From positions 5,920,001 to 5,984,000 of the forward strand of contig OY761556.1 in the NCBI GenBank assembly GCA_963664705.1: a stretch of 64,000 bases of DNA, read 5' to 3'. The notes beneath the pieces are model-generated. The model saw nothing but the letters and a program-made list of their open reading frames with translations. It was not told the DNA's origin and did no database searches. The DNA is from Acidobacteriota bacterium. Lineage in GTDB: Bacteria > Acidobacteriota > UBA6911. Shown here piece by piece: positions 22,714 through 36,899 of this stretch (positions are counted from its first letter, which is position 1; the number at the start of each line of letters is the position of its first letter). The position numbers and the translations under genes are program-made.

Positions 22714-22793
22714 GGCTATACAGAGTTGTTTCCTGAAATAGCCAGTAGTTTGCTCTCAAGTTGGTGATTACAAAAAACGGGAAAGGATCAGCG

Positions 22794-23525
22794 ATGAATC
22801 CGGAAGCGATGCGTCCTTACGGTTTATGCCTGCTTGATTATTTTGAGGGCAATAAATCGGCAGCGATGTCGATTATCAGAGATGACGGTTTCGTTGCCTC
22901 TCTGCCTGCCTCCGGCTTTTTTCGTGATCCTCGGGAATTTGAAATTGAAAAGGCTGCCCTGGATTTGGCCAGCGGCCGGGTTCTGGATGCGGGTGCAGGA
23001 ACCGGAATTCACAGCAAATACCTGCAGGACCAGGGACTCTCCGTTTGCGCCGTCGATCTTTTGCCGGAAACCGTGCATATAATGCGCAAGAGGGGAGTGC
23101 TCGATGTGCGCCAGGCGGATATCACGTCCTTCAAAGGCGAAAAATTCGATACGGTCATTATGATGGGGCATGGTATCGGGGTAGTGGAAGATCTTTCCGG
23201 GTTAAGCCGTTTTTTGGATAGCGCGAAAGGTCTGCTTGCGCCTGAAGGGCAAATTCTGTTGACTTCCGTGGATGTACGCTGCAGCAAGGAGCCGAAAGAT
23301 ATATCCTACCAGGAGAAGATTTCCAGGGCAGGCAGGTATTTCGGCGAGATTCGAATGCAAATCAAGTATGGAGATATTGTCGGCTCTCTGTGCGGGTGGC
23401 TCCAGGTTGATATTCAAACGTTAACAGGACATGCCCGTCAGTTTGGTTGGGATTGCCGGGAAATATTCCAGCAGGATGATGGGAATTACCTGGCTCGATT
23501 GTGTCTGCTCAAAGAGCCCTCATAG
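22794..23525 (+). CDS. Class I SAM-dependent methyltransferase
   Basis: VLDAGAGTG motif I, FDTVIMMG. Confidence 0.88.
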   Translation: MNPEAMRPYGLCLLDYFEGNKSAAMSIIRDDGFVASLPASGFFRDPREFEIEKAALDLASGRVLDAGAGTGIHSKYLQDQGLSVCAVDLLPETVHIMRKRGVLDVRQADITSFKGEKFDTVIMMGHGIGVVEDLSGLSRFLDSAKGLLAPEGQILLTSVDVRCSKEPKDISYQEKISRAGRYFGEIRMQIKYGDIVGSLCGWLQVDIQTLTGHARQFGWDCREIFQQDDGNYLARLCLLKEPS

Positions 23526-23668
23526 GGGCGAAAGAAAAACGTCTGAAAAAAAGTAAATGTCATTAGGCGCTTCACAGGCAGGAGCGCGGCCTCTTCCATG
23601 GCGCTCCCAGTGCAGGCTGAGCAGAAGAGGATACAATTTCGGATATTGTTGCCATAGGGAGAAAAATC

Positions 23669-24205
23669 ATGCGCATCCTGATAGGACTTCTGTTGGCCGC
23701 TGCCATGCTGACACTGTGCGGCTGCTTCGAAATGCCTTCGGTTTACCCGCTTTATACCGACCAGACAACCGTGGCGGAACCCCGGTTGTTGGGTGCCTGG
23801 CAGAGCAAAGACGGCAAGGATCAAATCTTCGTAAAGCTGGTGGGGGATCGCGATTACCGGCTCACCCATATTAACGATGATGGTGAAGCATCGCTGTGGA
23901 GACTGAGAGCGGTCAAGATTGGCGAGACGTCAGTCGCGGACATGGTGAAGATTACAGAAGACGCCAGTATTCCCGCTCATCATTTTTTAGCCCTGTCGTT
24001 CCAGGGCGGACTGCTTAAAGCCTGGTACCTGGATTCGAGTGCGCTGCGCGAAAGAGCCGTAAAGGAAGATCTGGCTTACGTGCATGGCGACAAAAAGGAG
24101 ACAGTGCTGACCGCACGAACGGAGTCGATTGTTGCATTTCTACAGAAGAACCTTGCCGCAGAGATGAAGAAGAACGCCGATCTGGAGTTTCTTCCCATGA
24201 AATAA
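23669..24205 (+). CDS. Hypothetical lipoprotein
   Basis: Signal peptide with lipobox LCGC; GGGAGA RBS. Confidence 0.75.
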   Translation: MRILIGLLLAAAMLTLCGCFEMPSVYPLYTDQTTVAEPRLLGAWQSKDGKDQIFVKLVGDRDYRLTHINDDGEASLWRLRAVKIGETSVADMVKITEDASIPAHHFLALSFQGGLLKAWYLDSSALRERAVKEDLAYVHGDKKETVLTARTESIVAFLQKNLAAEMKKNADLEFLPMK

Positions 24206-24291
24206 CTGCAGCGGCCCCGGGACCGCCGGCTCAGTCGTGCTTCTCAAATTTGGAAATTGCGCGGCCGGCGGCAGATCTGTATAAAGGAAGG

Positions 24292-25002
24292 ATGAGTATC
24301 GGGAGCGACAATCCGTTCGATTATTTTGACAGAATTTACTGCATCAACCTGGACAGCCGGCCGGAGAGGTGGGCTGCCGCCCGGATTGAATTCTCCAAAT
24401 TAGGAATACAGGACCGGGTCGAGAGAATCAGTGGAGTTCTCTGCACAGATCCCCATGAAGGATGTGCGCGGGCTCATCTCAAAGTGATCGAGCAGGCCAA
24501 ACAACTGCGGTTGTCTAACTGCCTCATCTTTGAGGATGATCTTTGGATACCGGAGGATGGAATGGTGGCGCTGGATTCCGCAATCCGGGAAATCTCGGGT
24601 CTGGATTGGGATTTGTTCTATGTGGGTGGAACGACGGTCACTCCTGCCTACCAGGTGTCGCCTTACCTCGCAAAAGCCACGGGCGTCTACTCCACGCAAT
24701 CCTATGCCATCAGCGCTCGGATGTATGATACCGTTCTCAATTCCTGGCATCCGCCCACGGTCTATGATCTCTTCCTGGCTCATGAGATGGCTCCGACCCA
24801 TCAATGTTATATAACAATTCCCCTGGTCGTTTATCAGAGCACGGGATATTCGGACATTGAAAACCGGATCGTCGACTACAGAAAAATGATGGATAGAAAC
24901 TATGCCCGCGACCTGGTCCGGGGCGTTGATGGGAAAGGAGGAATCTGGCGGCTGCCGACCGCCCGAGCTCCCCGGCGTCAATCAGGGGAGGCTGGGGAAT
25001 AG
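24292..25002 (+). CDS. Glycosyltransferase family 25-like protein
   Basis: YCINLDSRPERW, GCARAH, LIFEDD, STQSYAIS. Confidence 0.85.
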   Translation: MSIGSDNPFDYFDRIYCINLDSRPERWAAARIEFSKLGIQDRVERISGVLCTDPHEGCARAHLKVIEQAKQLRLSNCLIFEDDLWIPEDGMVALDSAIREISGLDWDLFYVGGTTVTPAYQVSPYLAKATGVYSTQSYAISARMYDTVLNSWHPPTVYDLFLAHEMAPTHQCYITIPLVVYQSTGYSDIENRIVDYRKMMDRNYARDLVRGVDGKGGIWRLPTARAPRRQSGEAGE

Positions 25003-25938
25003 AACCCCTGCCATCGAAAGCACACGGTTTTCATAGGTGTGGAGTTCCAGGACTTTCCGGTGCCCGGCCTGGGCGATCTCCTCGCATATCCGGTCATTGG
25101 CCAGAAGAGCTTCCGCTTTGGCAAACAGCTCCTCTTCCGAGCGATAAAAAAACAGATGTTGTCCATCGGAGAAGAGCTCCTCCAGCCCGCTCCCGTTTGC
25201 CGGATCGGCAAGAACAGGAGTTCCGCAGGCCATGGCTTCAAAAATTCTCCGGCTCAGCTTGTCCCTGGTGTCATTCCAGACAATCCTGGATTCCGAATAG
25301 AAGGCGGCGGCATCCTCCAGGATGTGCCACTCGAAACAGAGCTGGTATCGCGAAAACAACTTTTCCAGCAGGCTTTGGCGATGTGGTGGACAAACTCTGC
25401 CGACCAGGGCAAGCGAGTGGATTCTTCTGGTATTGCGGTCCCGGTACATCTGGGGATCGCATGCCACGGGGAGCCAGTGGGCATTGATGCCGGAGCGTTG
25501 AAACCGCTGCACGAACTGGCGCTGAGCCAGAAATGCCACATCAAAGTTCCGCCCCCAGTGAAGATGACTGCTCACGCGCAGGTCCGGCTGGCTGATATGT
25601 GTATTGATGAGGTAGCAGGCCTTCGGACATTGAAGCCGGGAAAGATCAATGCCGAATTGCACTCCCGATTCAATCCACAGAAAGGCATCCGGCTTCCATC
25701 CCGGGGCGTGACAGGCAAGAGCATCTGCCGGGTCTGTGGAGTCATATGGAATATCGGGCCGGATTATTTGTCCGCGGAGAGAGGCTAGTCCCTGCAGTTC
25801 CAGGATTGCGTCATCCGCCGGCGGTCCCCAGGTCCGGACATCGTATCGTTTTCTTAGTGCTTGTTCGATATGCCAGGCAACCGAGCCGGGATACGGGCAG
25901 TAAGACAGAAGTATCTTCTTGCGCACCTCTGAATTCAT
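24982..25938 (-). CDS. CgeB-like glycosyltransferase (GT-B, Glyco_trans_1_2)
   Basis: WLPVACDP, RIFEAMACG, IAQAGHRKVLELHTYENR. Confidence 0.85.
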   Translation of the reverse strand: MNSEVRKKILLSYCPYPGSVAWHIEQALRKRYDVRTWGPPADDAILELQGLASLRGQIIRPDIPYDSTDPADALACHAPGWKPDAFLWIESGVQFGIDLSRLQCPKACYLINTHISQPDLRVSSHLHWGRNFDVAFLAQRQFVQRFQRSGINAHWLPVACDPQMYRDRNTRRIHSLALVGRVCPPHRQSLLEKLFSRYQLCFEWHILEDAAAFYSESRIVWNDTRDKLSRRIFEAMACGTPVLADPANGSGLEELFSDGQHLFFYRSEEELFAKAEALLANDRICEEIAQAGHRKVLELHTYENRVLSMAGVLFPSLP

Positions 25939-26256: not shown

Positions 26257-26883
26257 ATGGATGCATCGAACCTGTTCAGGAAAGTAGCGGTTGAACGCAT
26301 GTCCTCGCCTGAACAGCTCGATCAGCTGTTGAAAGTCACAACCCCGAAGAGCTGGCTTGCGCTGGCGGCGGTGATCGCCTTTTTTACGGTCGTTATCGTC
26401 TGGGGATATCAGGGCGAGCTTTCAACAAAGGTTTCCGGTGACGGGGTTTTGATTACGTCTGCTGATCCGGGAATTCAGAAACTCGAGGCCTTTCTCTTTA
26501 TTCCCTCGGCCAAAGCCAAGGAAGTACACCCCGGCATGGCGGCTGAGATTTCGCCCAGCACAGTAAGGCGGGAAGAGTATGGATATATCAAAGGCAGGGT
26601 CACGTTCGTTTCCGACTATCCTGTAACGGAAGCGGCATTGATGAAACTCTTTGACAATCCGCCGCTGGTCCGGCTTTTTGAGTCCACGGGGCCGGTGACC
26701 GAAATACGCGTGGAGATGGAGGAAGATGCCAATACCATCTCCGGCTTCCGCTGGTCGGCTCCACGCGGTGCGCCCTTGAGGCTGAGCATCGGCACGCTGT
26801 GCACGGGCGATATTGTCACGCGGAAGCAGAGACCGATCAGCCTTGTCTTCCCATCTGTCCGAGAGACCTTAGGTTTAAGGTAG
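26257..26883 (+). CDS. NHLM/NHLP bacteriocin system secretion (HlyD-like) protein, unusually short
   Basis: LFRKVAVERMSSPEQLDQLL N-terminus, one TM helix, PSTVRREEYGYIKG, QRPISLVFP; only 208 aa. Confidence 0.85.
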   Translation: MDASNLFRKVAVERMSSPEQLDQLLKVTTPKSWLALAAVIAFFTVVIVWGYQGELSTKVSGDGVLITSADPGIQKLEAFLFIPSAKAKEVHPGMAAEISPSTVRREEYGYIKGRVTFVSDYPVTEAALMKLFDNPPLVRLFESTGPVTEIRVEMEEDANTISGFRWSAPRGAPLRLSIGTLCTGDIVTRKQRPISLVFPSVRETLGLR

Positions 26884-26889
26884 TTTCGA

Positions 26890-29094
26890 ATGATTCGCTT
26901 TCCTCAGTTCACGAAGATAAGAGAGTTCCTGGCAGGGATCCTCAAGCGGAAACGGGCTCGGACTCCAACGGTCATACAAATGGAGGCGGTGGAGTGCGGG
27001 GCTGCCAGCCTGGGCATGATTCTGGGCTATCACGGCCGGTTCATTCCATTGGAGGAACTGCGCGTAGCCTGCGGCGTATCACGTGATGGCAGCAAAGCTC
27101 TCAATATCGTGAAAGCCGCGCGGTCGTTCGGCCTGCTTGCCAAAGGATACAAGAAGGAGCCGGAACAGCTGCGCTCGATGCCGCTCCCGATGATTGTTTT
27201 CTGGAACTTCAATCACTTCGTCGTGGTTGAGGGATTCAAGCGTGGCAGGGTGTACCTGAACGACCCGGGGGCTGGCCCGCGCTGGGTGTCGGATCAGGAG
27301 TTTGACGAATCCTTCACGGGCGTGGTCTTGGCTTTTGAAAAAGGACCCGATTTTAAGACGGGTGGTCATCAGGCCTCAATCCTGAAATCGCTCGGAAACC
27401 GGCTCCCCGGAAGCCGCGTTGCCCTGGCATATATCGTGCTGGCGACCCTGGCTCTTGTTTTGCCGGGAATCCTGATCGCCGTGTTCTCCAAGATTTTCGT
27501 CGATAATATTCTATTGCAGGAATCGAGATCGTGGCTGAAGCCGCTGCTGATGGCCATGGTGGTAACCGCAATCGTTCGCGGATTACTGACCTTTTTCCAG
27601 CAGCGCAACCTGCTCCGCATGGAAATGAAGCTGGCCCTTGGGGCATCGAGCCGTTTCTTCTGGCACATTCTGCGGCTGCCCATGGAGTTCTTCGCCCAGC
27701 GATTTGCCGGCGACATCGCTTCGCGCATTCAGATCAACGACAATGTGGCCGTTCTCCTCTCGGGGGATCTCGCGACAAGCCTCGTCAGCATCGTGATGAT
27801 CGGCTTTTTTGCCGGGTTGATGTTTCAGTATGACGTTGTTTTGACTTTGCTGGGCATCGCCGTGGCTCTCCTTAACTTTGGAATTCTGCGGCTGCTCGCC
27901 CGCAGGCAGCGCAGCAACAATCTGCGGCTTCTGACGCAAAGGGGGAAGCTCGCGGGTACCTCTATGGCGGGTCTCCAGGGTTTGGAAACACTGAAGGCGA
28001 CTGGAACCGAAACAGAGTTTTTCAGCACGTGGGCGGGGCACCAGGCAAAACTGGTGCAGTCTGAGCAGGACATGGCTGTCGGATCTCTCTATTTGCAGGC
28101 CGCGCCGGCCTTCCTGACATCGATCAATGCAGTGGCCGTGATTGTTTTGGGCGGATTGCGCGTCATGGATGGATTCCTGACGATGGGAATGCTGATCGCT
28201 TTCCAGACTTTGATGGCCAGCTTTATTGAACCTGTCAATCGGCTGATAGATATGGGCGGACGATTGCAGGAAGCCAAAGGCGAGATGAACCAGTTGGATG
28301 ATGTCCTTCACTATCGCCAGGACCCGATGATCTCCCAAGTACGGCCGGCTCCCACCGAAAATCCGGGGAACAAACTGCAGGGCTCCCTGGAGCTGCGCAA
28401 CTTGACCTTTGGATACAGTCGGCTGGAGCCTCCGCTGATCAAAGACTTCAGCCTGACGCTCAAACCGGGCCAGCGAGTGGCTTTGGTCGGAGGGTCCGGA
28501 AGCGGCAAGTCTACGGTGGCAAAAATGGTTGCAGGGCTGTACGAACCATGGGAAGGGGAAATTTTGTTTGATGGCGTCCGCCGACAGGAATTGCCCCGCG
28601 ATCTGATCAGCAATTCCGTTGCGATGGTGAACCAGGAGATTACGCTTTTTGAAGACACCATTCGCAACAATCTGAGCCTGTGGGACGACACGATCGAGGA
28701 ACCGGTTATTGTCAGGGCTGCGGAGGATGCGTGCATCCATGACGACATCACGGACCGGGTCAAAGGATACAACTATGTCGTGGAGGAACAGGGGCGGAAT
28801 TTCAGCGGAGGCCAGCGACAGCGGCTCGAAATTGCCAGGGCTTTGGTGGGGAACCCGAGCATTCTCGTGCTGGACGAAGCCACCAGCGCCCTGGATCCCC
28901 TCACTGAAAAGCAGGTGGACGATGCTTTGAGGCGTCGAGGCTGCACCTGCCTGATTGTGGCGCATCGTCTCAGCACGATCCGGGACTGTGATGAGATCAT
29001 TGTCCTGGATAGGGGCGCCGTTGTGGAGCGGGGCGCACATTCGGAATTAATGAGCAACGAGGGCACCTACGCCCGCCTGATACGGACGGTTTAG
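26890..29094 (+). CDS. NHLM bacteriocin export ABC transporter, C39 peptidase/permease/ATPase
   Basis: QMEAVECGAASL (catalytic Cys), FNHFVVVEG (His), GGSGSGKST, FSGGQRQR, LDEATS. Confidence 0.96.
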   Translation: MIRFPQFTKIREFLAGILKRKRARTPTVIQMEAVECGAASLGMILGYHGRFIPLEELRVACGVSRDGSKALNIVKAARSFGLLAKGYKKEPEQLRSMPLPMIVFWNFNHFVVVEGFKRGRVYLNDPGAGPRWVSDQEFDESFTGVVLAFEKGPDFKTGGHQASILKSLGNRLPGSRVALAYIVLATLALVLPGILIAVFSKIFVDNILLQESRSWLKPLLMAMVVTAIVRGLLTFFQQRNLLRMEMKLALGASSRFFWHILRLPMEFFAQRFAGDIASRIQINDNVAVLLSGDLATSLVSIVMIGFFAGLMFQYDVVLTLLGIAVALLNFGILRLLARRQRSNNLRLLTQRGKLAGTSMAGLQGLETLKATGTETEFFSTWAGHQAKLVQSEQDMAVGSLYLQAAPAFLTSINAVAVIVLGGLRVMDGFLTMGMLIAFQTLMASFIEPVNRLIDMGGRLQEAKGEMNQLDDVLHYRQDPMISQVRPAPTENPGNKLQGSLELRNLTFGYSRLEPPLIKDFSLTLKPGQRVALVGGSGSGKSTVAKMVAGLYEPWEGEILFDGVRRQELPRDLISNSVAMVNQEITLFEDTIRNNLSLWDDTIEEPVIVRAAEDACIHDDITDRVKGYNYVVEEQGRNFSGGQRQRLEIARALVGNPSILVLDEATSALDPLTEKQVDDALRRRGCTCLIVAHRLSTIRDCDEIIVLDRGAVVERGAHSELMSNEGTYARLIRTV

Positions 29095-29095
29095 A

Positions 29096-31975
29096 ATGGG
29101 TCAACCGGTCACTCCCTCCATCCAGTCCCTGGAAGATAAAATTCAGGCTGCTCCCTTTCTGATTCATGATGCCCGGAAAATGTGGCTGATAATTTCGGGC
29201 AGCCTGGATTTATTCCTTGTCAGCGTCAACGACGGCAATTCCTATGGGGCGAGGACCCATGTGCTCCGCGCCGGGTGCGGTTCCGCTGTCTTTGGCGTGG
29301 ATTGCGCTCCCTCGTCCATCGAGCAGCTGCTGGCGGTTCCCGGACCCGGATGTCGAATCCGGGAGCTATCCTGCGGGGAGACGCTCGACAACCAGGAGAT
29401 GGAAAAGCTGCTGGACGGTTGGATATCAGGGCTGTCCTCAGCGGCAGCAAGAGATCTGGTTCCCCAAAACGTCGAGTATCTGCAGCCTGCTTCAAAGCTG
29501 GAGCTCAGCGAGGCAAAAGCGGTTCTGAGCCGCAAAGGTGTCCTGTGGGTGCGGTTGATCAAGGGGGCCGCGCGGTTCCTGGGCGAGTATGATCTGGCAA
29601 CCGGTGAGGGTTCTACTCCTTTTCCTCTTACCGAATCCACATGGCTGCAGGCTGAAAAGGATTGCTCCTTCGCGGCGATCACGGCCGGCCGGGACTTGAT
29701 TTTCGGAACAGATACGCAGACCGGAGGATTAGGGCTGTTCCATGAGCGAGTTTTGAATTGCCTTATTCAAAACCGGCGGCGCGACGAGGAAAAAGAGAAG
29801 GAACGGATTGCGCGTCGGAATGAAGCGGACCGTGACCGCGTCGATCAATCCATGCAGCTTCTGGCTTCACCCCTGCTGGAAAAACAGGAGGTCCCGGAGG
29901 GAGCTGAAGGCGATCCACTGATTCTTGCGTGCGGGGTCCTGGGTAAAAAACTCGGAATTCAGTTCAAACCCGCTCCGGGGCCAATTCCAAAGAGCGAAGA
30001 ACCTGTAATCGCAATTGCGCGCGCATCGAACGTCCGCGTCCGCAGTGTGGCCCTGAAAGGCAAATGGTGGAACGAGGATAACGGTCCCCTGCTGGGCCGC
30101 CGCGAGAGTGATCAGATGCCGGTTGCGCTCCTGCCGTCTTCCGCCAGGAGCTATGATTTGTATGATCCGGTTGCCCGCACCTATGCCCGCGTTGATGAGA
30201 GCGTCGCGCGAACCCTGGAAGTTTTCGCGTGGCAATTCTATCGTCCCTTTCCCGCGAAGGAACTCGGGTTGTTCGATTTGATCCGGTTTGGCTTCAACGA
30301 CTGCCGCGGCAGCCTTGGCACCATGCTCCTGATGGGAGCGGCAACCGGCGTGCTGGGAATGTCCATTCCTGTGGGCACCGGGATCCTGTTCGATTCCATC
30401 ATTCCCGGGGCAAACCGTTCCCAGCTTCTTCAGATGCTCGTGTTGATGGCGGTCGTGTGTGTCTGCACAACGCTTTTCCAGATTGTCCAGAACATTGCAG
30501 TGCTTCGAATTCGCGGCAAAATGGACGCGTCGGTACAGGCGGCGGTTTGGGACCGGCTGCTGAGCTTGCCCGTGCCTTTTTTCAGGGATTTTACGGCGGG
30601 GGATCTTGCTACCCGAAGTCTGAGTATCAGCGCAATCTGGGACATCCTGACGGGATCGGTCCTTTCGTCACTTCTCTCTGGACTATTCTCTATCTTCAGC
30701 TTCGTACTCCTCTTCTACTATAGCTGGAAGCTCGCTCTATTGGCGACCGGTCTTACCGTGGTCACGGCGCTGGTAACCATTTTCAGCGGTTACCAGGAAG
30801 TGCGTTGCCGGCGGGAGACAGCGCAAATTCAGGGGCATCTTTCCGGAATGCTGCTCCAGTTTATCAATGGCATTGCAAAATTGAGGATTTCCGCGACAGA
30901 AAATCGCGCTTTTGCATCGTGGGCAAAAGAGTTTACCCGTCAGAAAAAGTCCTCCATCCGGAGCCGGAAGGTTTCGGTCCGGCTTGCGGTATTCACGTCG
31001 GTATTTCCAGTTCTCGGTTCTGCGGTAATTTTTTATGCCATGTCTTCTCTGTCTGGGGGGGCTGAAAGCCTGTCGTTATCAACCGGGAACTTCCTTGCGT
31101 TCAATGCGGCGTTTACCCAATTCGAATTTGCCGTTCTCGCCTTAAGTTCCGCGCTGATTTCGGCTCTCCACATCGTGCCGCTGTATGAGCGTGCTCTGCC
31201 GATTCTCCAAACACTGCCGGAGGTTGATACCACAAAGAGTCACCCGGGCGAGTTGTCGGGCAATATCGAAGTGCGGCACGTAAATTTCCGTTACCGTCCC
31301 GACACCGCTCTGATCCTGCGGGATGTATCGCTCAAAATTGCATCCGGAAGGTTCGTGGCCCTGGTGGGGCCCTCCGGCAGCGGCAAGTCCACGATTTTCC
31401 GGATGCTGCTCGGATTCGAGATGCCGGAGTCGGGGGCGATCCTCTATGACAACCAGGATCAATCGCAGATCGACATGCAGGCCGTTCGGAAACAGATTGG
31501 AGTGGTGCTGCAGAGCGGACAATTGTTTGCCGACTCGATTTACAGAAACATCGTGGGTTCCGCTCCCATCACAATAGAAGAGGCATGGGAGGCAGCCTGC
31601 AAGGCAGGGATGGACAAGGATATTCAGGCAATGCCGATGGGCCTGCATACCGTGCTGGCTGAGGGTGGCGGCGGATTGTCCGGCGGGCAGCGGCAGCGGT
31701 TGATGATCGCGCGCGCCATCGTCCGGAAACCGCGCATTCTCTTTTTCGATGAAGCGACCAGTGCACTCGACAATGAGACGCAAACGATCGTGAGCCGGAG
31801 CCTGGAAAGCCTGAAGTCAACCCGGGTTGTCATTGCGCACCGGCTCAGCACAATTGCCAATGCCGATTATATCTACGTGATGGACAAAGGAACTATCGTT
31901 CAGGAAGGGACGTATCAGGACCTGATTGGCAAGCCCGGGCCTTTTGCCGATCTGGCTCGTCGGCAGATTGCCTGA
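29096..31975 (+). CDS. NHLM bacteriocin system ABC transporter, permease/ATP-binding (peptidase-less partner)
   Basis: AAVWDRLLSLP, GPSGSGKST, LSGGQRQR, FDEATSALDN; adjacent to the C39-ABC. Confidence 0.94.
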   Translation: MGQPVTPSIQSLEDKIQAAPFLIHDARKMWLIISGSLDLFLVSVNDGNSYGARTHVLRAGCGSAVFGVDCAPSSIEQLLAVPGPGCRIRELSCGETLDNQEMEKLLDGWISGLSSAAARDLVPQNVEYLQPASKLELSEAKAVLSRKGVLWVRLIKGAARFLGEYDLATGEGSTPFPLTESTWLQAEKDCSFAAITAGRDLIFGTDTQTGGLGLFHERVLNCLIQNRRRDEEKEKERIARRNEADRDRVDQSMQLLASPLLEKQEVPEGAEGDPLILACGVLGKKLGIQFKPAPGPIPKSEEPVIAIARASNVRVRSVALKGKWWNEDNGPLLGRRESDQMPVALLPSSARSYDLYDPVARTYARVDESVARTLEVFAWQFYRPFPAKELGLFDLIRFGFNDCRGSLGTMLLMGAATGVLGMSIPVGTGILFDSIIPGANRSQLLQMLVLMAVVCVCTTLFQIVQNIAVLRIRGKMDASVQAAVWDRLLSLPVPFFRDFTAGDLATRSLSISAIWDILTGSVLSSLLSGLFSIFSFVLLFYYSWKLALLATGLTVVTALVTIFSGYQEVRCRRETAQIQGHLSGMLLQFINGIAKLRISATENRAFASWAKEFTRQKKSSIRSRKVSVRLAVFTSVFPVLGSAVIFYAMSSLSGGAESLSLSTGNFLAFNAAFTQFEFAVLALSSALISALHIVPLYERALPILQTLPEVDTTKSHPGELSGNIEVRHVNFRYRPDTALILRDVSLKIASGRFVALVGPSGSGKSTIFRMLLGFEMPESGAILYDNQDQSQIDMQAVRKQIGVVLQSGQLFADSIYRNIVGSAPITIEEAWEAACKAGMDKDIQAMPMGLHTVLAEGGGGLSGGQRQRLMIARAIVRKPRILFFDEATSALDNETQTIVSRSLESLKSTRVVIAHRLSTIANADYIYVMDKGTIVQEGTYQDLIGKPGPFADLARRQIA

Positions 31976-32003
31976 TTCAGCCGTTCTCTCAAGTGAGGAA
32001 GCG

Positions 32004-32540
32004 ATGAGGAAAGCACTTTATTTTTTGGGCATCCTGGATGATCGGGATATTGACTGGATAATCCGCAATGGCAGAAAGATGACGCTGAAGCCTGGAGCGC
32101 AGCTGATCGAAGAGGGGAAGCCGACGGATTGGCTTTACTTCGTGCTCGAAGGATCCTTCGTGGTCTACACTGCGGCCGCGTCCAGAATCGCAGTTCTCAA
32201 AGCGGGAGAGGTGGTAGGAGAAATTTCCTTCGTCGATTCGCGTCCGCCCACCGCCAACGTGCGCGCGGAAACCGAATCCAGAGTCGGCGCGATTCAGCGC
32301 GATATGTTGATGCAACGGCTGCAGGAGAACGTCGGGTTTGCAGCTCGCTTCTATCAATCGCTGGCGGCTTATCTGGCGGACCGCCTGCGAACCACCGTGG
32401 GAACCCTGGGGGTTCAGAAACTGAATCTCGATGAAAGTATCGAAGACACGGATGAGCTGGCCCCGCATCTGCTCAGCAATTTGTCGATGGCCGGAACCCG
32501 TTTTACCGACATGCAGAGACGCGAGTGGGGGAGAGGTTAG
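32004..32540 (+). CDS. Cyclic nucleotide-binding domain protein associated with bacteriocin-type transport
   Basis: MRKALYFLGILDDRDIDW, GEVVGEISFVDSRPPTANV; this family typically follows NHLM transporters. Confidence 0.88.
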   Translation: MRKALYFLGILDDRDIDWIIRNGRKMTLKPGAQLIEEGKPTDWLYFVLEGSFVVYTAAASRIAVLKAGEVVGEISFVDSRPPTANVRAETESRVGAIQRDMLMQRLQENVGFAARFYQSLAAYLADRLRTTVGTLGVQKLNLDESIEDTDELAPHLLSNLSMAGTRFTDMQRREWGRG

Positions 32541-32790
32541 AGACGAACACAGCGCCGGGCGAGGGAAATCGCATATAGGAGTTACGCTCAATGCGGCAGC
32601 CGCGTGCGTCATTCCAATAACCAAAATATTATTGTTTTGCCCGGAGCACTCAAGTAACATCCACGGCTATGTTTGGAAAGTCTGGAGCTTCGCGCCAGTT
32701 AATCTTTCAAAATAGCAGCTGACGACCCCGGCAGGCTCAAGGGATTCAAGTGTTGATTTACCATTCATGATCGGACGAAGGAGAGAGAAT

Positions 32791-32952
32791 ATGGCAGACG
32801 AGAAGAAAGAAAAGAAGCCCATCAAGATCACCATCGATGACCAAGGAGCGGTCAAGCTCGATCAGGAACAGCTCGATGAAGAACAATTGAGTGCTATTGC
32901 CGGTGGGATCGAGATCATCCGGAATGTCACGTGCCGTATAACAAGAAGATAA
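32791..32952 (+). CDS. RiPP precursor peptide (39-aa double-glycine leader plus 14-aa core IEIIRNVTCRITRR)
   Basis: AAGGAGAG RBS; leader ends LDEEQLSAIAGG (C39 cleavage motif); lies between the exporter and two radical SAM genes. Confidence 0.9.
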   Translation: MADEKKEKKPIKITIDDQGAVKLDQEQLDEEQLSAIAGGIEIIRNVTCRITRR

Positions 32953-33019
32953 TAAATTCCGAAGCCGATGCTGTATTCAATGCACATTGTCTGCAGCTCG
33001 CAGCTTAAAGGCATGACAT

Positions 33020-33050
33020 CCCTTGCGGGGAGATGGTTTCCCCGCAAGGG
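33020..33050 (+). promoter_or_regulatory. Strong stem-loop between precursor and maturase genes
   Basis: CCCTTGCGGGGA-gatggtt-TCCCCGCAAGGG, 12-bp perfect stem, no U-tract. Confidence 0.65.
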
Positions 33051-33067
33051 CAACCTCGCGCGTAAGA

Positions 33068-34069
33068 ATGAAAGATGTGAATTTCCCATCCCCTGCAGAA
33101 CTGGGGGCAGCCCTGAACCCCAGCGCCCTCTACCTGATGGTCTTTCCGACCGAAGACTGTAATCTCCGATGTACATATTGCTATGAGGATCACAAGCCCG
33201 GCAGCATGAGCCCGTCAGTGCTTGGCGGGCTGGAACGGCTGATTGAGCGCAGAATGAGAGACCTCAGGCATATCCGTCTGTCGTGGTTTGGAGGAGAGCC
33301 GCTGCTGGCAAAAAATGTTGTTTTCGAGTTGGCCGAGTTTGTCCAAAAGTGCTGCGCTCAGTCCGGCTGCGTTCACCTGCCGGGCAGCGTCACGACCAAT
33401 GGTTACCTGTTGACTGCGGATGTTGCGCAACGGCTGATAGCGGCCGGACAAAAGCAATTTCATATTTCGCTCGACGGGATTGGGGAAGCCCATGATCATA
33501 GCCGTCCCCTTGTTTCGGGCCGCGGTTCCTTCGAACGAATCTGGGCCAACCTGCATGCGCTTCGATGCAGCGCACTGGAATTCGAGCTTGTTTTCCGAGT
33601 TCACTATGGATTTCCCGCGAGGGAGGCTACCGAGGCCTTGTGCCGGCATTTGAATGCGGATTTTGGGGGCGATCGCCGGTTCCGCGTTACGCTGCAGTCC
33701 ATAGCCGATCTCGGGGGGGAGAATACCGGGACGTTTACACCGTTGTCTGTTACGGAAGCGTTGTGCGCTTCTGACGTTTTTTCGGCGCTCATGCCCGATC
33801 TTGTGGTCAGCGACAACAAAACAGCTGATTATTGCATATGCGAGGCGGCACGGCCCAATCACCTGCTGATCCGGCCTGACGGACGGGTTTGCAAATGCGC
33901 CGTGAATCTGAATGATCCACGCAATGAGGTGGGCAGAATCACCGAGGATGGCAGAATCGAGTTTAACCAGCAGCGGCTTCAGCCCTGGTTCAGAGGATTT
34001 GAACAACTCGACAAGGATATCCTCCTATGTCCCTTCACTTGGGTTTGCGAAACCCCGCTGGAACAATGA
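33068..34069 (+). CDS. Radical SAM peptide maturase with C-terminal Twitch/SPASM-like Cys cluster
   Basis: CNLRCTYC, WFGGEPLL, TTNG, ISLDG; C-terminal CICEAARPNHLLIRPDGRVCKC...CP. Confidence 0.92.
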   Translation: MKDVNFPSPAELGAALNPSALYLMVFPTEDCNLRCTYCYEDHKPGSMSPSVLGGLERLIERRMRDLRHIRLSWFGGEPLLAKNVVFELAEFVQKCCAQSGCVHLPGSVTTNGYLLTADVAQRLIAAGQKQFHISLDGIGEAHDHSRPLVSGRGSFERIWANLHALRCSALEFELVFRVHYGFPAREATEALCRHLNADFGGDRRFRVTLQSIADLGGENTGTFTPLSVTEALCASDVFSALMPDLVVSDNKTADYCICEAARPNHLLIRPDGRVCKCAVNLNDPRNEVGRITEDGRIEFNQQRLQPWFRGFEQLDKDILLCPFTWVCETPLEQ

Positions 34070-35964
34070 CTGGTAAACGAAAGCGATCGTCAAACTCGAC
34101 CAGGCTCCCCAAGGTGGCACTTGTAGCTGCCCCTTGGCAAACCTTCTGTCGCCCGTCCATCCAGCTTGCCTGTCTCAAAGCTTTTGCTGAAAAACACGTC
34201 CCAGGCGTCAGGGTTGAAACGCATCATCTCTATCTGGCTGTCGCTGCCGGCCTGGGCCGCCCGCAATATGATGCGGTTTCCTGCTGGGACTCTGTTATCT
34301 GTGAATCGCTCTATGGCAATCTGCTTTTTCCATCGAAAAGATCGGACGCCGAGAATGCGCTCCGGCAGATGGTCGGGCGAAGGGCTTTGGCACGCATCCC
34401 ATATGGGCCGCTGATGAAACGGATCCGTGCCGCGACGGATTCCTACGTGGATAGTGTGGATTGGTCCGAATATAGCCTGGTTGGATTCTCCATCTGCCTG
34501 GCTCAACTCGCCTCTTCGCTCTACTGCATCCGGCGGATCAAGCGCCGGTATCCGGATCTGCCGGTGGTTATCGGAGGTTCCTCTTACGGCCGCGAGTCCT
34601 TGCAGCGCATTCTATGCGGTTTTCCCGAGGTGGACATTGCCGTTAATGGTGAGGGGGAAATCCCTTTTGGCGACCTCCTGGAACTGATTTCGAAGGGCGA
34701 GGGCCTGGATGCGATGCGAGCCGTGCCCGGTGTTGTCACAAAAGAGTCTGTGTTTGAGGCACCGATCGCCTGCCGCCAGTTGCCTTCCCTGGATCAGCTT
34801 CCGTATCCCGATTTTACGGATTATTTTGAGCAGCTGAAAACCCTGGCGCATGCAAAACCCTTTTATACCACTCTGCTGATCGAGTCATCGAGAGGTTGCG
34901 CATGGCGTTCAAGCGGAAGTTCAGCGAATCCTGATCGGCCGGGATGCGCCTTCTGCGGTCTGAACCGGACCTGGCAAGGTTATCGTTACAAGTCGGCCGA
35001 GAGAGTAGCGGCGGAGGTTGATGCCCTTTCCGATCAGCATGGAATTCTTGCGCTGGCATTTACGGATAATCTTTTGCCTGTTTCCGCATCGGTTCGCCAT
35101 CCCGTCGAGCTCAAGGCCCTGAACAAAGATCTCAGCCTCTTTGGAGAAATGCGCGCAAACATCACCCGTCCCGTGAGCCGCGCATTGGCGGATGCCGGTT
35201 TCGAGTGCGTTCAGCTGGGAATCGAATCGCTCAGCACGCCGCTTCTCGCAAAGATGAAAAAGGGAACCACTGCGATTCAAAATCTGCAAGCCCTGAAACT
35301 ATGCGAAGAGCAGGGTATTGTCGCGCTGTGGAACCTGCTGATCGAGTTTCCCTCCAGCGACAGGCACGATATCGATGAAACCCTGCGCGTGATGCGCTTC
35401 GCGATGCATTTCAGGCCGTGTAAAATTTCTGTTTTCGAGCTTGAACCCGACAGCATGGTTGCGACTGATCCGCCGGCCTATGGCATTCCCAAAATCATAG
35501 AAAATCCGCTGTTGCACTCGCTTTTCCCTCCCGGGTTTTCGCGTTCACTGCCTCGGCTCTTCCTGGACTATCGCGGGCGAAAGGAACAGAAAAAGCTTTG
35601 GGCGCCTGTGCGTCGCCAGGTAAGGCTTTGGAATCGCGAGTACCAGCTGCTTCAGGAAAACCTGCCACTCGGACCGATCCTGTCCTACAGCGATGGCGGC
35701 TCTTTCCTGTTGATCAGAAAAAAACGGCCGGGGGCTCCGGCAACGGTATATCGCTTTGGGGAGGCGAGCCGGGCACTTTATCTCTTCTGCCACGAACACC
35801 AGTCCTTTGCGGCGATTGCTCGCGCATTCAGCTCCATCCGGGAAGATCATCTTCGCCAGCTGCTGCACTCGATGGTGAACCAGCATCTCATGTTTACGGA
35901 AGCCGACCGATATCTGAGCCTTGCCATCCGCGATAACTGGTCTCGCGACAGGAGACAGGAATAG
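34066..35964 (+). CDS. RiPP maturation radical SAM protein with B12-binding-like N-domain (putative C-methyltransferase, TIGR03975-like)
   Basis: RPSIQLACLK, VGFS...Q, GEGE, ESSRGC...CAFCGLN, QLGIESLS...MKKG; ATGA overlap with the upstream gene. Confidence 0.88.
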   Translation: MTGKRKRSSNSTRLPKVALVAAPWQTFCRPSIQLACLKAFAEKHVPGVRVETHHLYLAVAAGLGRPQYDAVSCWDSVICESLYGNLLFPSKRSDAENALRQMVGRRALARIPYGPLMKRIRAATDSYVDSVDWSEYSLVGFSICLAQLASSLYCIRRIKRRYPDLPVVIGGSSYGRESLQRILCGFPEVDIAVNGEGEIPFGDLLELISKGEGLDAMRAVPGVVTKESVFEAPIACRQLPSLDQLPYPDFTDYFEQLKTLAHAKPFYTTLLIESSRGCAWRSSGSSANPDRPGCAFCGLNRTWQGYRYKSAERVAAEVDALSDQHGILALAFTDNLLPVSASVRHPVELKALNKDLSLFGEMRANITRPVSRALADAGFECVQLGIESLSTPLLAKMKKGTTAIQNLQALKLCEEQGIVALWNLLIEFPSSDRHDIDETLRVMRFAMHFRPCKISVFELEPDSMVATDPPAYGIPKIIENPLLHSLFPPGFSRSLPRLFLDYRGRKEQKKLWAPVRRQVRLWNREYQLLQENLPLGPILSYSDGGSFLLIRKKRPGAPATVYRFGEASRALYLFCHEHQSFAAIARAFSSIREDHLRQLLHSMVNQHLMFTEADRYLSLAIRDNWSRDRRQE

Positions 35965-36119: not shown

Positions 36120-36899
36120 GTGGTAGTGCGGCTACCGTCGATTTTCTTCGGCCATGGCAATCCAATGAATGCGCTGAGTGAGAGCGGCTACGGCGCGGAA
36201 TGGCGGCGCCTGGGCGAGGAGATTCCAAGGCCCAATGCCATTGTTTGTGTTTCTGCGCACTGGTTCGTTGGAGGAACCCGTGTTACCGGCAATAAGTTTC
36301 CTGAGACCATTCACGATTTTGGCGGATTTCCAGAGGAGCTCTACCGGATCCTCTATCCGGCGCCGGGGGATCAGGGCCTGGCCGGAAGGCTGCAATCTGC
36401 TCTGGCGCCCCTGGATGTAACGCTCGATGAGACCTGGGGTCTGGATCATGGGACATGGTCTGTGCTCCGGCATGTGTATCCGGATGCCGACGTCCCGGTC
36501 GTCCAGTTGAGCATTGATGCGAGAAAGCCGGCGTCATTCCATTTTGAATTGGGCCGGCGGCTGGCGCCTTTGCGGAGCGAAGGGATTCTGATCATGGGCA
36601 GCGGCAACCTGGTTCATAATCTTCATCATTATGCTTGGGGACAGCCGAAAGCCGAGCCTCGCGCCTGGGCGGTTCGTTTCGAGAATAGGGTTAGGGCGGT
36701 GCTTTCATCGGGAGAGTTTGAGCCGCTGATTCGTTATGAAGAGCTGGATCCGGATGCCAGGTTATCTGTTCCGACGCCGGATCATTATCTGCCGCTGCTT
36801 TATGTTCTTGGTACGCGTCAGCCGGATGAGCCCGTCAGCTATCCGATAGAGGGCATTGAGGGTGGCTCGCTTTCCATGTTGACGGTATGTGTCGGCTAA
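36120..36899 (+). CDS. ygiD: 4,5-DOPA dioxygenase extradiol (LigB/YgiD family)
   Basis: FFGHGNPMNA, SAHW, TIHDFGGFP, GLDHGTW, GSGNLVHNL, PTPDHYLPL. Confidence 0.92.
   Translation: MVVRLPSIFFGHGNPMNALSESGYGAEWRRLGEEIPRPNAIVCVSAHWFVGGTRVTGNKFPETIHDFGGFPEELYRILYPAPGDQGLAGRLQSALAPLDVTLDETWGLDHGTWSVLRHVYPDADVPVVQLSIDARKPASFHFELGRRLAPLRSEGILIMGSGNLVHNLHHYAWGQPKAEPRAWAVRFENRVRAVLSSGEFEPLIRYEELDPDARLSVPTPDHYLPLLYVLGTRQPDEPVSYPIEGIEGGSLSMLTVCVG

Follow-up and report, generated by a model that had tools for sequence, protein, structure and literature searches.

Which product is made by a cluster of seven genes at 26257..35964 of a 64,000-nucleotide stretch of contig OY761556.1 from an Acidobacteriota bacterium (the whole stretch being called the window below), and does this set of genes correspond to a known peptide pathway? 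The seven genes, all on the (+) strand, encode in order an adaptor, a C39 peptidase-ATP-binding cassette (ABC) protein, a second ABC protein, a cyclic nucleotide monophosphate (cNMP)-binding protein, a precursor peptide, a radical S-adenosylmethionine (SAM) enzyme starting at 33068 and a B12-type radical SAM enzyme starting at 34066 (the 33068 and 34066 enzymes). A preliminary description made from the letters alone had given the order and common orientation of these open reading frames (ORFs), and all of them were found again at the same coordinates. The cluster is probably that of a thioether peptide from a large family lacking a model, with a rare B12-dependent methyltransferase added to it, and is apparently uncharacterised. 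The features on which this reading rests are the following:

32791..32952, (+): precursor gene, 53 amino acids (aa), with a purine-rich stretch resembling a ribosome-binding site upstream; sisters P0250, P0251 and P0252
32821..32859, (+): family leader motif I-x-I-D-D-x-G-x-V-x-L, matched by the leader profile from other loci with 18.7-19.1 bits
32902..32907, (+): Gly-Gly cleavage site, residues 38-39, kept in 3/3 sisters; motif as described in PMC2887384
32908..32949, (+): core IEIIRNVTCRITRR, 14 aa including a single Cys; monoisotopic mass 1742.01 when unmodified
32923..32934, (+): Asn45-Val-Thr-Cys48, where the thioether ring is predicted from the enrichment of the motif in the family and its presence as N-V-[TS]-C in two sisters (P0250, P0251)
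33068..34069, (+): compact radical SAM maturase, 333 aa; PF04055; Cx3Cx2C at 31-38; C-terminal Cys 258, 277 and 321
34066..35964, (+): B12-dependent radical SAM C-methyltransferase-family protein, 632 aa; TIGR03975 350 bits (scored from the alternative start at 34027) against a cut-off of 282 (281.85); PF02310, PF04055

The cluster is almost certainly a real pathway for a peptide synthesised ribosomally and then modified post-translationally (RiPP), a short precursor with leader and core lying beside modifying enzymes and a leader peptidase/exporter. The division of the 53-aa precursor into a 39-aa leader ending in Gly-Gly (GG) and a 14-aa core was confirmed. When a leader profile was built without the window precursor, the frame of this precursor was its top match genome-wide (19.1 bits, E=0.009), and a GG-leader pattern matched 2 of 45,967 short ORFs, namely the precursor and what is probably a piece of some unrelated protein; the genome yielded no further peptide of GG-leader or Nif11 type. 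The precursor matched no NCBIfam model at E 0.01, TIGR03798 had no match in the genome, and the same was true of TIGR03793, whose control likewise gave none. With only 39 aa, the leader falls outside the proteusin/NHLP and Nif11-leader types. The reported absence of YcaO was verified, PF02624 being without match genome-wide while its positive controls matched; domain models detected no YcaO, LanM or LanC among the seven genes, and PF05147 had no match in the genome, its control also giving none. The description of a RiPP cluster using radical SAM enzymes alone and an NHLM-type exporter is supported. An ExbD identity of the precursor was considered and rejected, the Pfam match of 17 bits being below the cut-off and judged to be noise. 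In the Joint Genome Institute (JGI) data from which it comes, the sister precursor P0251 is called 'biopolymer transport protein ExbD', owing to such a sub-threshold Pfam match; this is a mis-annotation that would hide such peptides.

The evidence for a thioether comes mainly from the precursors that accompany homologues of the 33068 enzyme. Of 7,997 candidates that were scored, 1,534 are such homologues at E<=1e-20, and 160 family loci among the matches listed (80 from metagenomes and 80 from genomes) were examined; the named loci among them belong to at least 13 phyla. A leader profile was seeded with 14 Gly-Gly leaders, without regard to their cores, and iterated over 1,244 small same-strand ORFs located up to 1.3 kb upstream or 0.9 kb downstream of the enzyme gene. 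This search, blind to any core motif, recovered 83 peptides in 70 of the 160 loci. Cys is present in every one of the 80 distinct tails, and Asn-x-x-Cys (NxxC) in 61 of them (19 tails are without it), compared to 20.8 +/- 3.6 expected, and 34 at most, in 1000 within-peptide shuffles. Asn occupies position -3 of 110 out of 240 cysteines, where 24 would be expected, and the last 30 aa of the other small ORFs contain NxxC in merely 82 of 1161 cases. The loci are related, so that the contrast with the shuffles overstates the significance, but the motif recurs across distant phyla. This motif, which had been overlooked in the preliminary description, points to a thioether; it is the NxxC-type ranthipeptide motif, common across the family and present in the window precursor and two of its three sisters. 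As the core contains a single Cys, an internal disulfide is impossible. The short leader had been taken as a distinctive trait, which it is not, as it is common to this large peptide family; its conserved motif at 32821..32859 is the predicted recognition site of the 33068 enzyme. Some precursors (in L100, L111, L036 and L002) have the leader motif doubled or repeated past the core.

The 33068 enzyme passed none of the curated maturase models. Its best NCBIfam match, TIGR04463, the CrpC family, scored 126 bits against a cut-off of 525, and nine of its homologues scored 117-159 bits with this model and missed all listed maturase cut-offs. The preliminary label of a Twitch-SPASM radical SAM protein holds for the radical SAM part; the C-terminus is a truncated three-cysteine domain and not a full SPASM domain. 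Cys258, Cys277 and Cys321 are conserved in 100, 100 and 99% of 93 aligned rows, respectively, and a fourth conserved Cys is absent, which suggests, from the alignment, an auxiliary cluster with a possibly open iron site, as in enzymes that make thioethers, unless a non-Cys residue supplies the fourth ligand. The structural model (predicted local distance difference test, pLDDT, 83) begins straight at the barrel, without an N-terminal RiPP recognition element (RRE). CteB was the top match both in sequence searches of the PDB and with Foldseek (template modelling score, TM, 0.66; 19% identity). Taken together with the motif, these features make it probable that the 33068 enzyme performs thioether chemistry, and Asn45 is somewhat better than evenly placed as the acceptor.

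Several observations weigh against this assignment or against Asn45. The 33068 enzyme has only ~20% identity to any solved or characterised enzyme. In a wide fold search, anSME and ChlB, which form no thioethers, tied with CteB (Z 20.7, 20.4 and 20.1), so that the fold does not decide the chemistry. At position 259, where 92% of the family has Tyr, the window enzyme has Glu, as do its two closest sister maturases. Asn shows a weaker excess at -4 (55 vs 24), -1 and +2 of Cys. The sister precursor P0252 has R-L-T-C at the position of the motif, and only 5 of the 10 nearest cores (those of the window, P0250-P0252, two L081 peptides, L001 and L082-L084) contain NxxC; in the first L081 peptide and in L082 and L083 no Asn precedes the cysteines, and in L084 it stands at -4.

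These observations, in particular the substitution at position 259, the absence of Asn at -3 from half of the nearest cores and its enrichment at -4, leave room for a different ring, in which Cys48 would be joined to the alpha-carbon of Asn45 (a sactionine) or to another residue, or would undergo other Cys-directed radical chemistry. QmpB, which clusters with NxxcB, the maturase of an NxxC ranthipeptide, is described as making an Asn C-alpha thioether (PMC11851443), and the NxxC motif therefore does not fix the carbon. The signal at -3 is, however, the strongest in the whole family, and Asn is kept there in the two closest sisters; in addition, Tyr39, Phe74, Thr109/110 and Ser134, the first four positions of the catalytic site, resemble the Phe, Phe, Thr and Ser described for the ranthisynthase CteB (PMC10288494), a weak pointer away from the alpha-carbon. 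A different ring is the less likely outcome, though one of appreciable weight.

A miniature proteusin-like pathway, with epimerisation of Ile, Val or Asn by the 33068 enzyme and methylation by the B12 enzyme, as for polytheonamide and nostatin A, appears very improbable. The pairing of an epimerase with a B12 methyltransferase has been published (PMC5682303, PMC11583998) and 7 of the 14 core residues are beta-branched, but the top 25 NCBIfam matches of the enzyme include no epimerase model, the epimerase EpeE (Z 15.8) ranked below CteB (20.1) and SkfB (19.0) in the fold search, and the presence of Cys in 80/80 cores would go unexplained.

We therefore return to the thioether peptide and to its closest relatives. 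A direct search retrieved the sister precursors P0250 (85% identity) and P0251 (75%), and P0252 was added by cluster look-up. P0250 and P0251 retain G-G-I-E-I-I-R-N-V-[TS]-C, and their variation is confined to the part following the Cys. A precursor profile searched against 1.84 billion representatives returned only P0250 and six long proteins aligning over short stretches. The longest contig of P0251, of the maturase P0002 (79% identical to the 33068 enzyme) and of the B12 enzyme P0122 (71% identical to the 34066 enzyme) is in each case 37,398 bp, and that of P0250 and of the maturase P0003 (76%) is 3,779 bp. From these matching contig sizes we infer two sister loci, one of them with both enzymes. 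No close sister locus with readable DNA was found in 60 relatives or 136 class genomes, and 4 of 400 phylum genomes gave a maturase-type match, at merely 33-39% identity. The nearest loci with readable DNA, among the matches listed, are L081-L084, whose maturases are 44-54% identical to the window enzyme and group with it at 99 in the Shimodaira-Hasegawa-like approximate likelihood-ratio test (SH-aLRT), in a quick tree used solely for naming the nearest clade. All four have NHLM exporters and the family leader, and most of their cores are without Asn at -3. One of them, L081 (9685-13487, Rhodocyclaceae), contains an NHLM exporter, two family maturases and seven Gly-Gly peptides, among which the family leader together with cysteines is found only in the peptide directly preceding each enzyme.

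The description of the 34066 enzyme as a B12-type radical SAM protein was correct, as it passes TIGR03975 and has both a B12-binding and a radical SAM domain. Its gene could also start from an ATG at 34027, in the same frame (645 vs 632 aa). A Cx15Cx2C motif is found at 278/294/297, with all three Cys invariant, and the model (pLDDT 90) has a fold resembling OxsB, TokK and TsrM (Z 18.8-21.0). At the C-terminus, residues 539-605 are confidently modelled as three strands followed by three helices. RREs have this three-strand/three-helix order, and the domain looks like an RRE in the order of its secondary structure; this part of the protein, which lies outside the region covered by the fold searches, has no PDB sequence match, and its Atlas neighbours are stand-alone proteins of 100 aa, some of them DUF5825. 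The genome encodes CobS.

This enzyme quite probably acts on the window precursor, to judge from the position of its gene. The alternative is that the B12 gene is a passenger or serves another substrate, the product then being simply a thioether peptide such as the other members of the family would make. No TIGR03975-type orthologue was found in the 160 family loci, 108 of which have at least 2.5 kb downstream, and a profile of 120 B12-enzyme homologues gave one weak match on the opposite strand (73 bits, with true homologues at 450-744). The closest homologues other than the sister (~40%) are mostly from other lineages. Furthermore, 20 distant TIGR03975-type regions, supplied by 19 of the 28 further genomes of the phylum that had a match, had neither a GG-leader peptide, by the pattern used, nor an NHLM exporter within ~7 kb (20/20), so that membership of this family does not by itself link an enzyme to a peptide; the RRE likeness is one of strand and helix order, and the sister cluster with a B12 gene is deduced from matching contig sizes, not from gene order. 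In favour of a role in the cluster, the gene is translationally coupled to the maturase gene and shares its strand and its G+C content at third codon positions (GC3, 0.61), the 71% orthologue P0122 is on a contig of the same size as those of a sister precursor and maturase, and the protein has the RRE-like domain in a genome where no other GG-leader or Nif11-type peptide was found. A passenger gene is for these reasons considered unlikely. The distant TIGR03975-like genes (L192-L211), mostly without a GG-leader peptide or exporter, have kinases, P450, methyltransferases or YcaO/TfuA as neighbours; 2 of the 20 regions adjoin YcaO (37 of 79 neighbours scanned).

Within the maturase family, the methyltransferase is by its distribution an accessory. 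In the slot after the maturase, 2-oxoglutarate (2OG)-Fe(II)/JmjC oxygenases were found in 5 of 44 downstream ORFs/loci scanned (of 61; the other 17 ORFs, taken for transporters, overlapping frames or near-duplicates, were left out), namely in L082 (10878-11765) and L083 (3437-4036), which are two of the nearest loci, and in L101, L091 and L097. This suggests that the position after the maturase is an exchangeable tailoring slot.

The remaining four genes, listed below, encode the three exporter subunits and a cNMP-binding protein of a kind that accompanies NHLM exporters.

26257..26883, (+): adaptor, HlyD-like, NHLM type, 208 aa; TIGR03794 204 bits, cut-off 156
26890..29094, (+): C39 peptidase/permease/ATPase subunit; TIGR03796 1097 bits, cut-off 853; PF03412
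29096..31975, (+): second exporter subunit, permease/ATPase; TIGR03797 942 bits, cut-off 709
32004..32540, (+): single-domain cNMP-binding protein; PF00027; TIGR03896 128 bits, under the cut-off of 161

The assignment to the NHLM type stands, as TIGR03794, TIGR03796 and TIGR03797 all score above cut-off in adjacent genes. In the C39 subunit, Cys36, His109 and Asp125 are present and the Walker A/B and signature motifs are intact. The identification of the cNMP gene is sustained as to its single PF00027 domain, but not as to TIGR03896, since the protein aligns to half of that model and remains below its cut-off; the same short form, 68-70% identical, lies beside the exporters of three relatives. 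The link with an NHLM exporter had been thought unusual, which was not upheld, as 15 of the 160 maturase-family loci have one and 34 more have another peptidase-ABC-like gene (in a crude score bin). TIGR03796 matched in 9 of 136 other class genomes, from which eight regions were fetched. The three closest exporters among these (68-76% identity) are accompanied by neither a 33068-type maturase nor its peptide, and one has a Nif11-looking peptide by eye; the exporter therefore appears to be a shared chassis with exchangeable cargo. In L223, L225 and L226, close NHLM exporters have no evident precursor or maturase directly downstream, and their cargo may be encoded elsewhere.

The view that the cluster is complete is doubtful as far as export to the outside is concerned. 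Compared to the 418-aa adaptors of the three closest exporter loci, the window adaptor has lost ~210 central residues in frame, with ~60% identity on either side of the gap, and the gene of 520-534 aa found upstream in these loci (PF02321 where tested), for an outer-membrane channel, is absent at the window locus. Adaptors need their central segment for reaching an outer-membrane channel. Both absences could be taken as signs of a decaying cluster from which no product leaves the cell. This we consider highly unlikely: the deletion preserves the frame, no ORF or catalytic motif is interrupted, conservation of the rest of the adaptor (~60%) equals that of the second ABC subunit, adaptors of reduced length occur at other loci (L109, 216 aa; L042 and L082, 292 aa; L227-L229, 194-200 aa), and the genome has 40 PF02321 domain matches elsewhere. 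Because the adaptor is without its long central segment, export of the thioether peptide may end in the periplasm.

The pathway may accordingly be pictured as follows. The 33068 enzyme, having no RRE, would bind the conserved leader motif directly. A 5'-deoxyadenosyl radical would take a hydrogen from the residue three positions before the Cys, most likely from the C-beta of Asn as in NxxcB, while Cys48 would sit on the free iron of an auxiliary cluster held by three protein cysteines and would close the ring onto Asn45 (-2 Da). The B12 enzyme would dock on the leader via its RRE-like C-terminal domain and methylate an unactivated carbon, most likely of Ile40, Ile42, Ile43 or Val46 (+14 Da each). 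The C39 domain would finally cut after Gly39 and free a 14-residue peptide. The product would thus likely be a cationic 14-mer with a Cys-Asn thioether and C-methylation. For the reading as a whole (a Cys48-Asn45 thioether from the 33068 enzyme, C-methyl groups from the B12 enzyme, and export following a cut after Gly39), in which the chemistry is deduced and not observed, the chances appear evenly balanced.

The organisation of the locus is compact. The intergenic gaps are 6, 1, 28, 250, 115 and -4 nt in order, the last corresponding to the ATGA overlap between the two enzyme genes, which was found again at 34066-34069. Between the precursor and maturase genes there is one further feature:

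33020..33050, (+): hairpin of 14 bp with a 3-nt loop, without T-run

The RNA of 33016-33066 has a predicted folding energy of -26.3 kcal/mol, and the hairpin may possibly stabilise the precursor message. Scans for promoters (5 vs 5.1) and terminators (18 vs 12.0 +/- 3.6) gave counts at about the level of shuffled sequence, no composition anomaly was detected at the cluster, and no second copy of it was found in the genome. One public contig covers 25500-36500 without any difference and may come from the window's own sample; short identical pieces of the locus are present in a second public study. No RNA data set containing the locus was listed among the public runs, which has no bearing on its expression. 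The flanking genes comprise a SAM methyltransferase (22761) and two glycosyltransferase-like genes (24250 and 24982; 22761-25938 altogether) on one side and a DOPA-dioxygenase-family gene (36120-36899) on the other, and were kept outside the cluster because of their strand and gaps. Elsewhere in the genome (G000 C1 4973492-4980764), three radical SAM genes with weak maturase-profile matches lie within 8 kb.

Among described systems, the closest in chemistry is NxxcA/NxxcB of Streptococcus orisratti, a ranthipeptide with a thioether from Asn20 C-beta to Cys23 (PMC9389541, PMC8326336; NxxcB accession WP_018375754.1, in the supplement of PMC11851443). It shares with the window the NxxC motif, in which the Asn C-beta thioether is made (PMC9389541). 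NxxcB is, however, described with a SPASM domain and in shp/rgg-controlled streptococcal loci (PMC9389541, PMC8326336), whereas the window combines a single three-Cys site and a Gly-Gly leader with an NHLM exporter and a methyltransferase, the comparison being one of descriptions only. CrpC (CrpA/CrpC, Methanococcus voltae, TIGR04463), for which thioether formation was shown, has a three-Cys AuxI site (333/352/403) with the same 19-residue first spacing as the 33068 enzyme, but it carries an RRE as well as AuxII, and its substrate is a large protein rich in Cys, modified at motifs in which Cys stands first (PMC13692751). The 34066 enzyme resembles the PoyB/PoyC type (TIGR03975; polytheonamide, nostatin A NstA) in passing the model and in having a B12-binding domain and a spaced Cys motif. 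It differs in this motif, which is Cx15Cx2C and not Cx7Cx2C, in having no NHLP leader and no YcaO found with it, and in its partner, a putative thioether maturase instead of an epimerase or P450. With the NHLP/Nif11 export system the cluster shares three subunits that pass the models and a Gly-Gly site after an acidic/Leu motif; its leader ends at residue 39, compared to averages of 83 (NHLP) and 70 (N11P) in the published description (PMC2887384), its precursor fits neither model and its adaptor has half the length. That a short core can receive both a cross-link and a B12-dependent methylation at C-beta is already known from ApyD (PMC11117315).

The claim that the combination resembles no characterised family agrees with a full-text search, most subscription papers lying outside its reach, which found neither such a family nor a published study of the 33068 family; the literature search likewise found no case in which just two radical SAM enzymes carry out thioether formation and B12-dependent methylation. 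The added B12 enzyme is the only unusual feature of the cluster, and its pairing with the maturase is rare. It is a tentative possibility that the cluster founds a class in which two radical SAM enzymes alone build a thioether-ringed, C-methylated 14-mer, with an RRE-free maturase that has a single auxiliary cluster and for which, in this branch, the Asn acceptor is dispensable. If this is true, the 33068 enzyme would be a general X-x-x-Cys stapling enzyme, the ring itself could be methylated, at Val46 or Asn45, and the product would reach the periplasm by way of the shortened adaptor.

As closely comparable examples of every individual reaction have been published, the impact is limited. A 333-aa, RRE-free stapling enzyme with a relaxed acceptor, if it proves to be one, would nevertheless be useful for peptide engineering. 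For the maturase family, which is without a curated model, the cluster is a small and self-contained test case: the 14-mer with its single Cys gives a simple read-out (-2 Da, +14 Da), and one co-expression could therefore assign a chemistry to more than 1,500 homologues.

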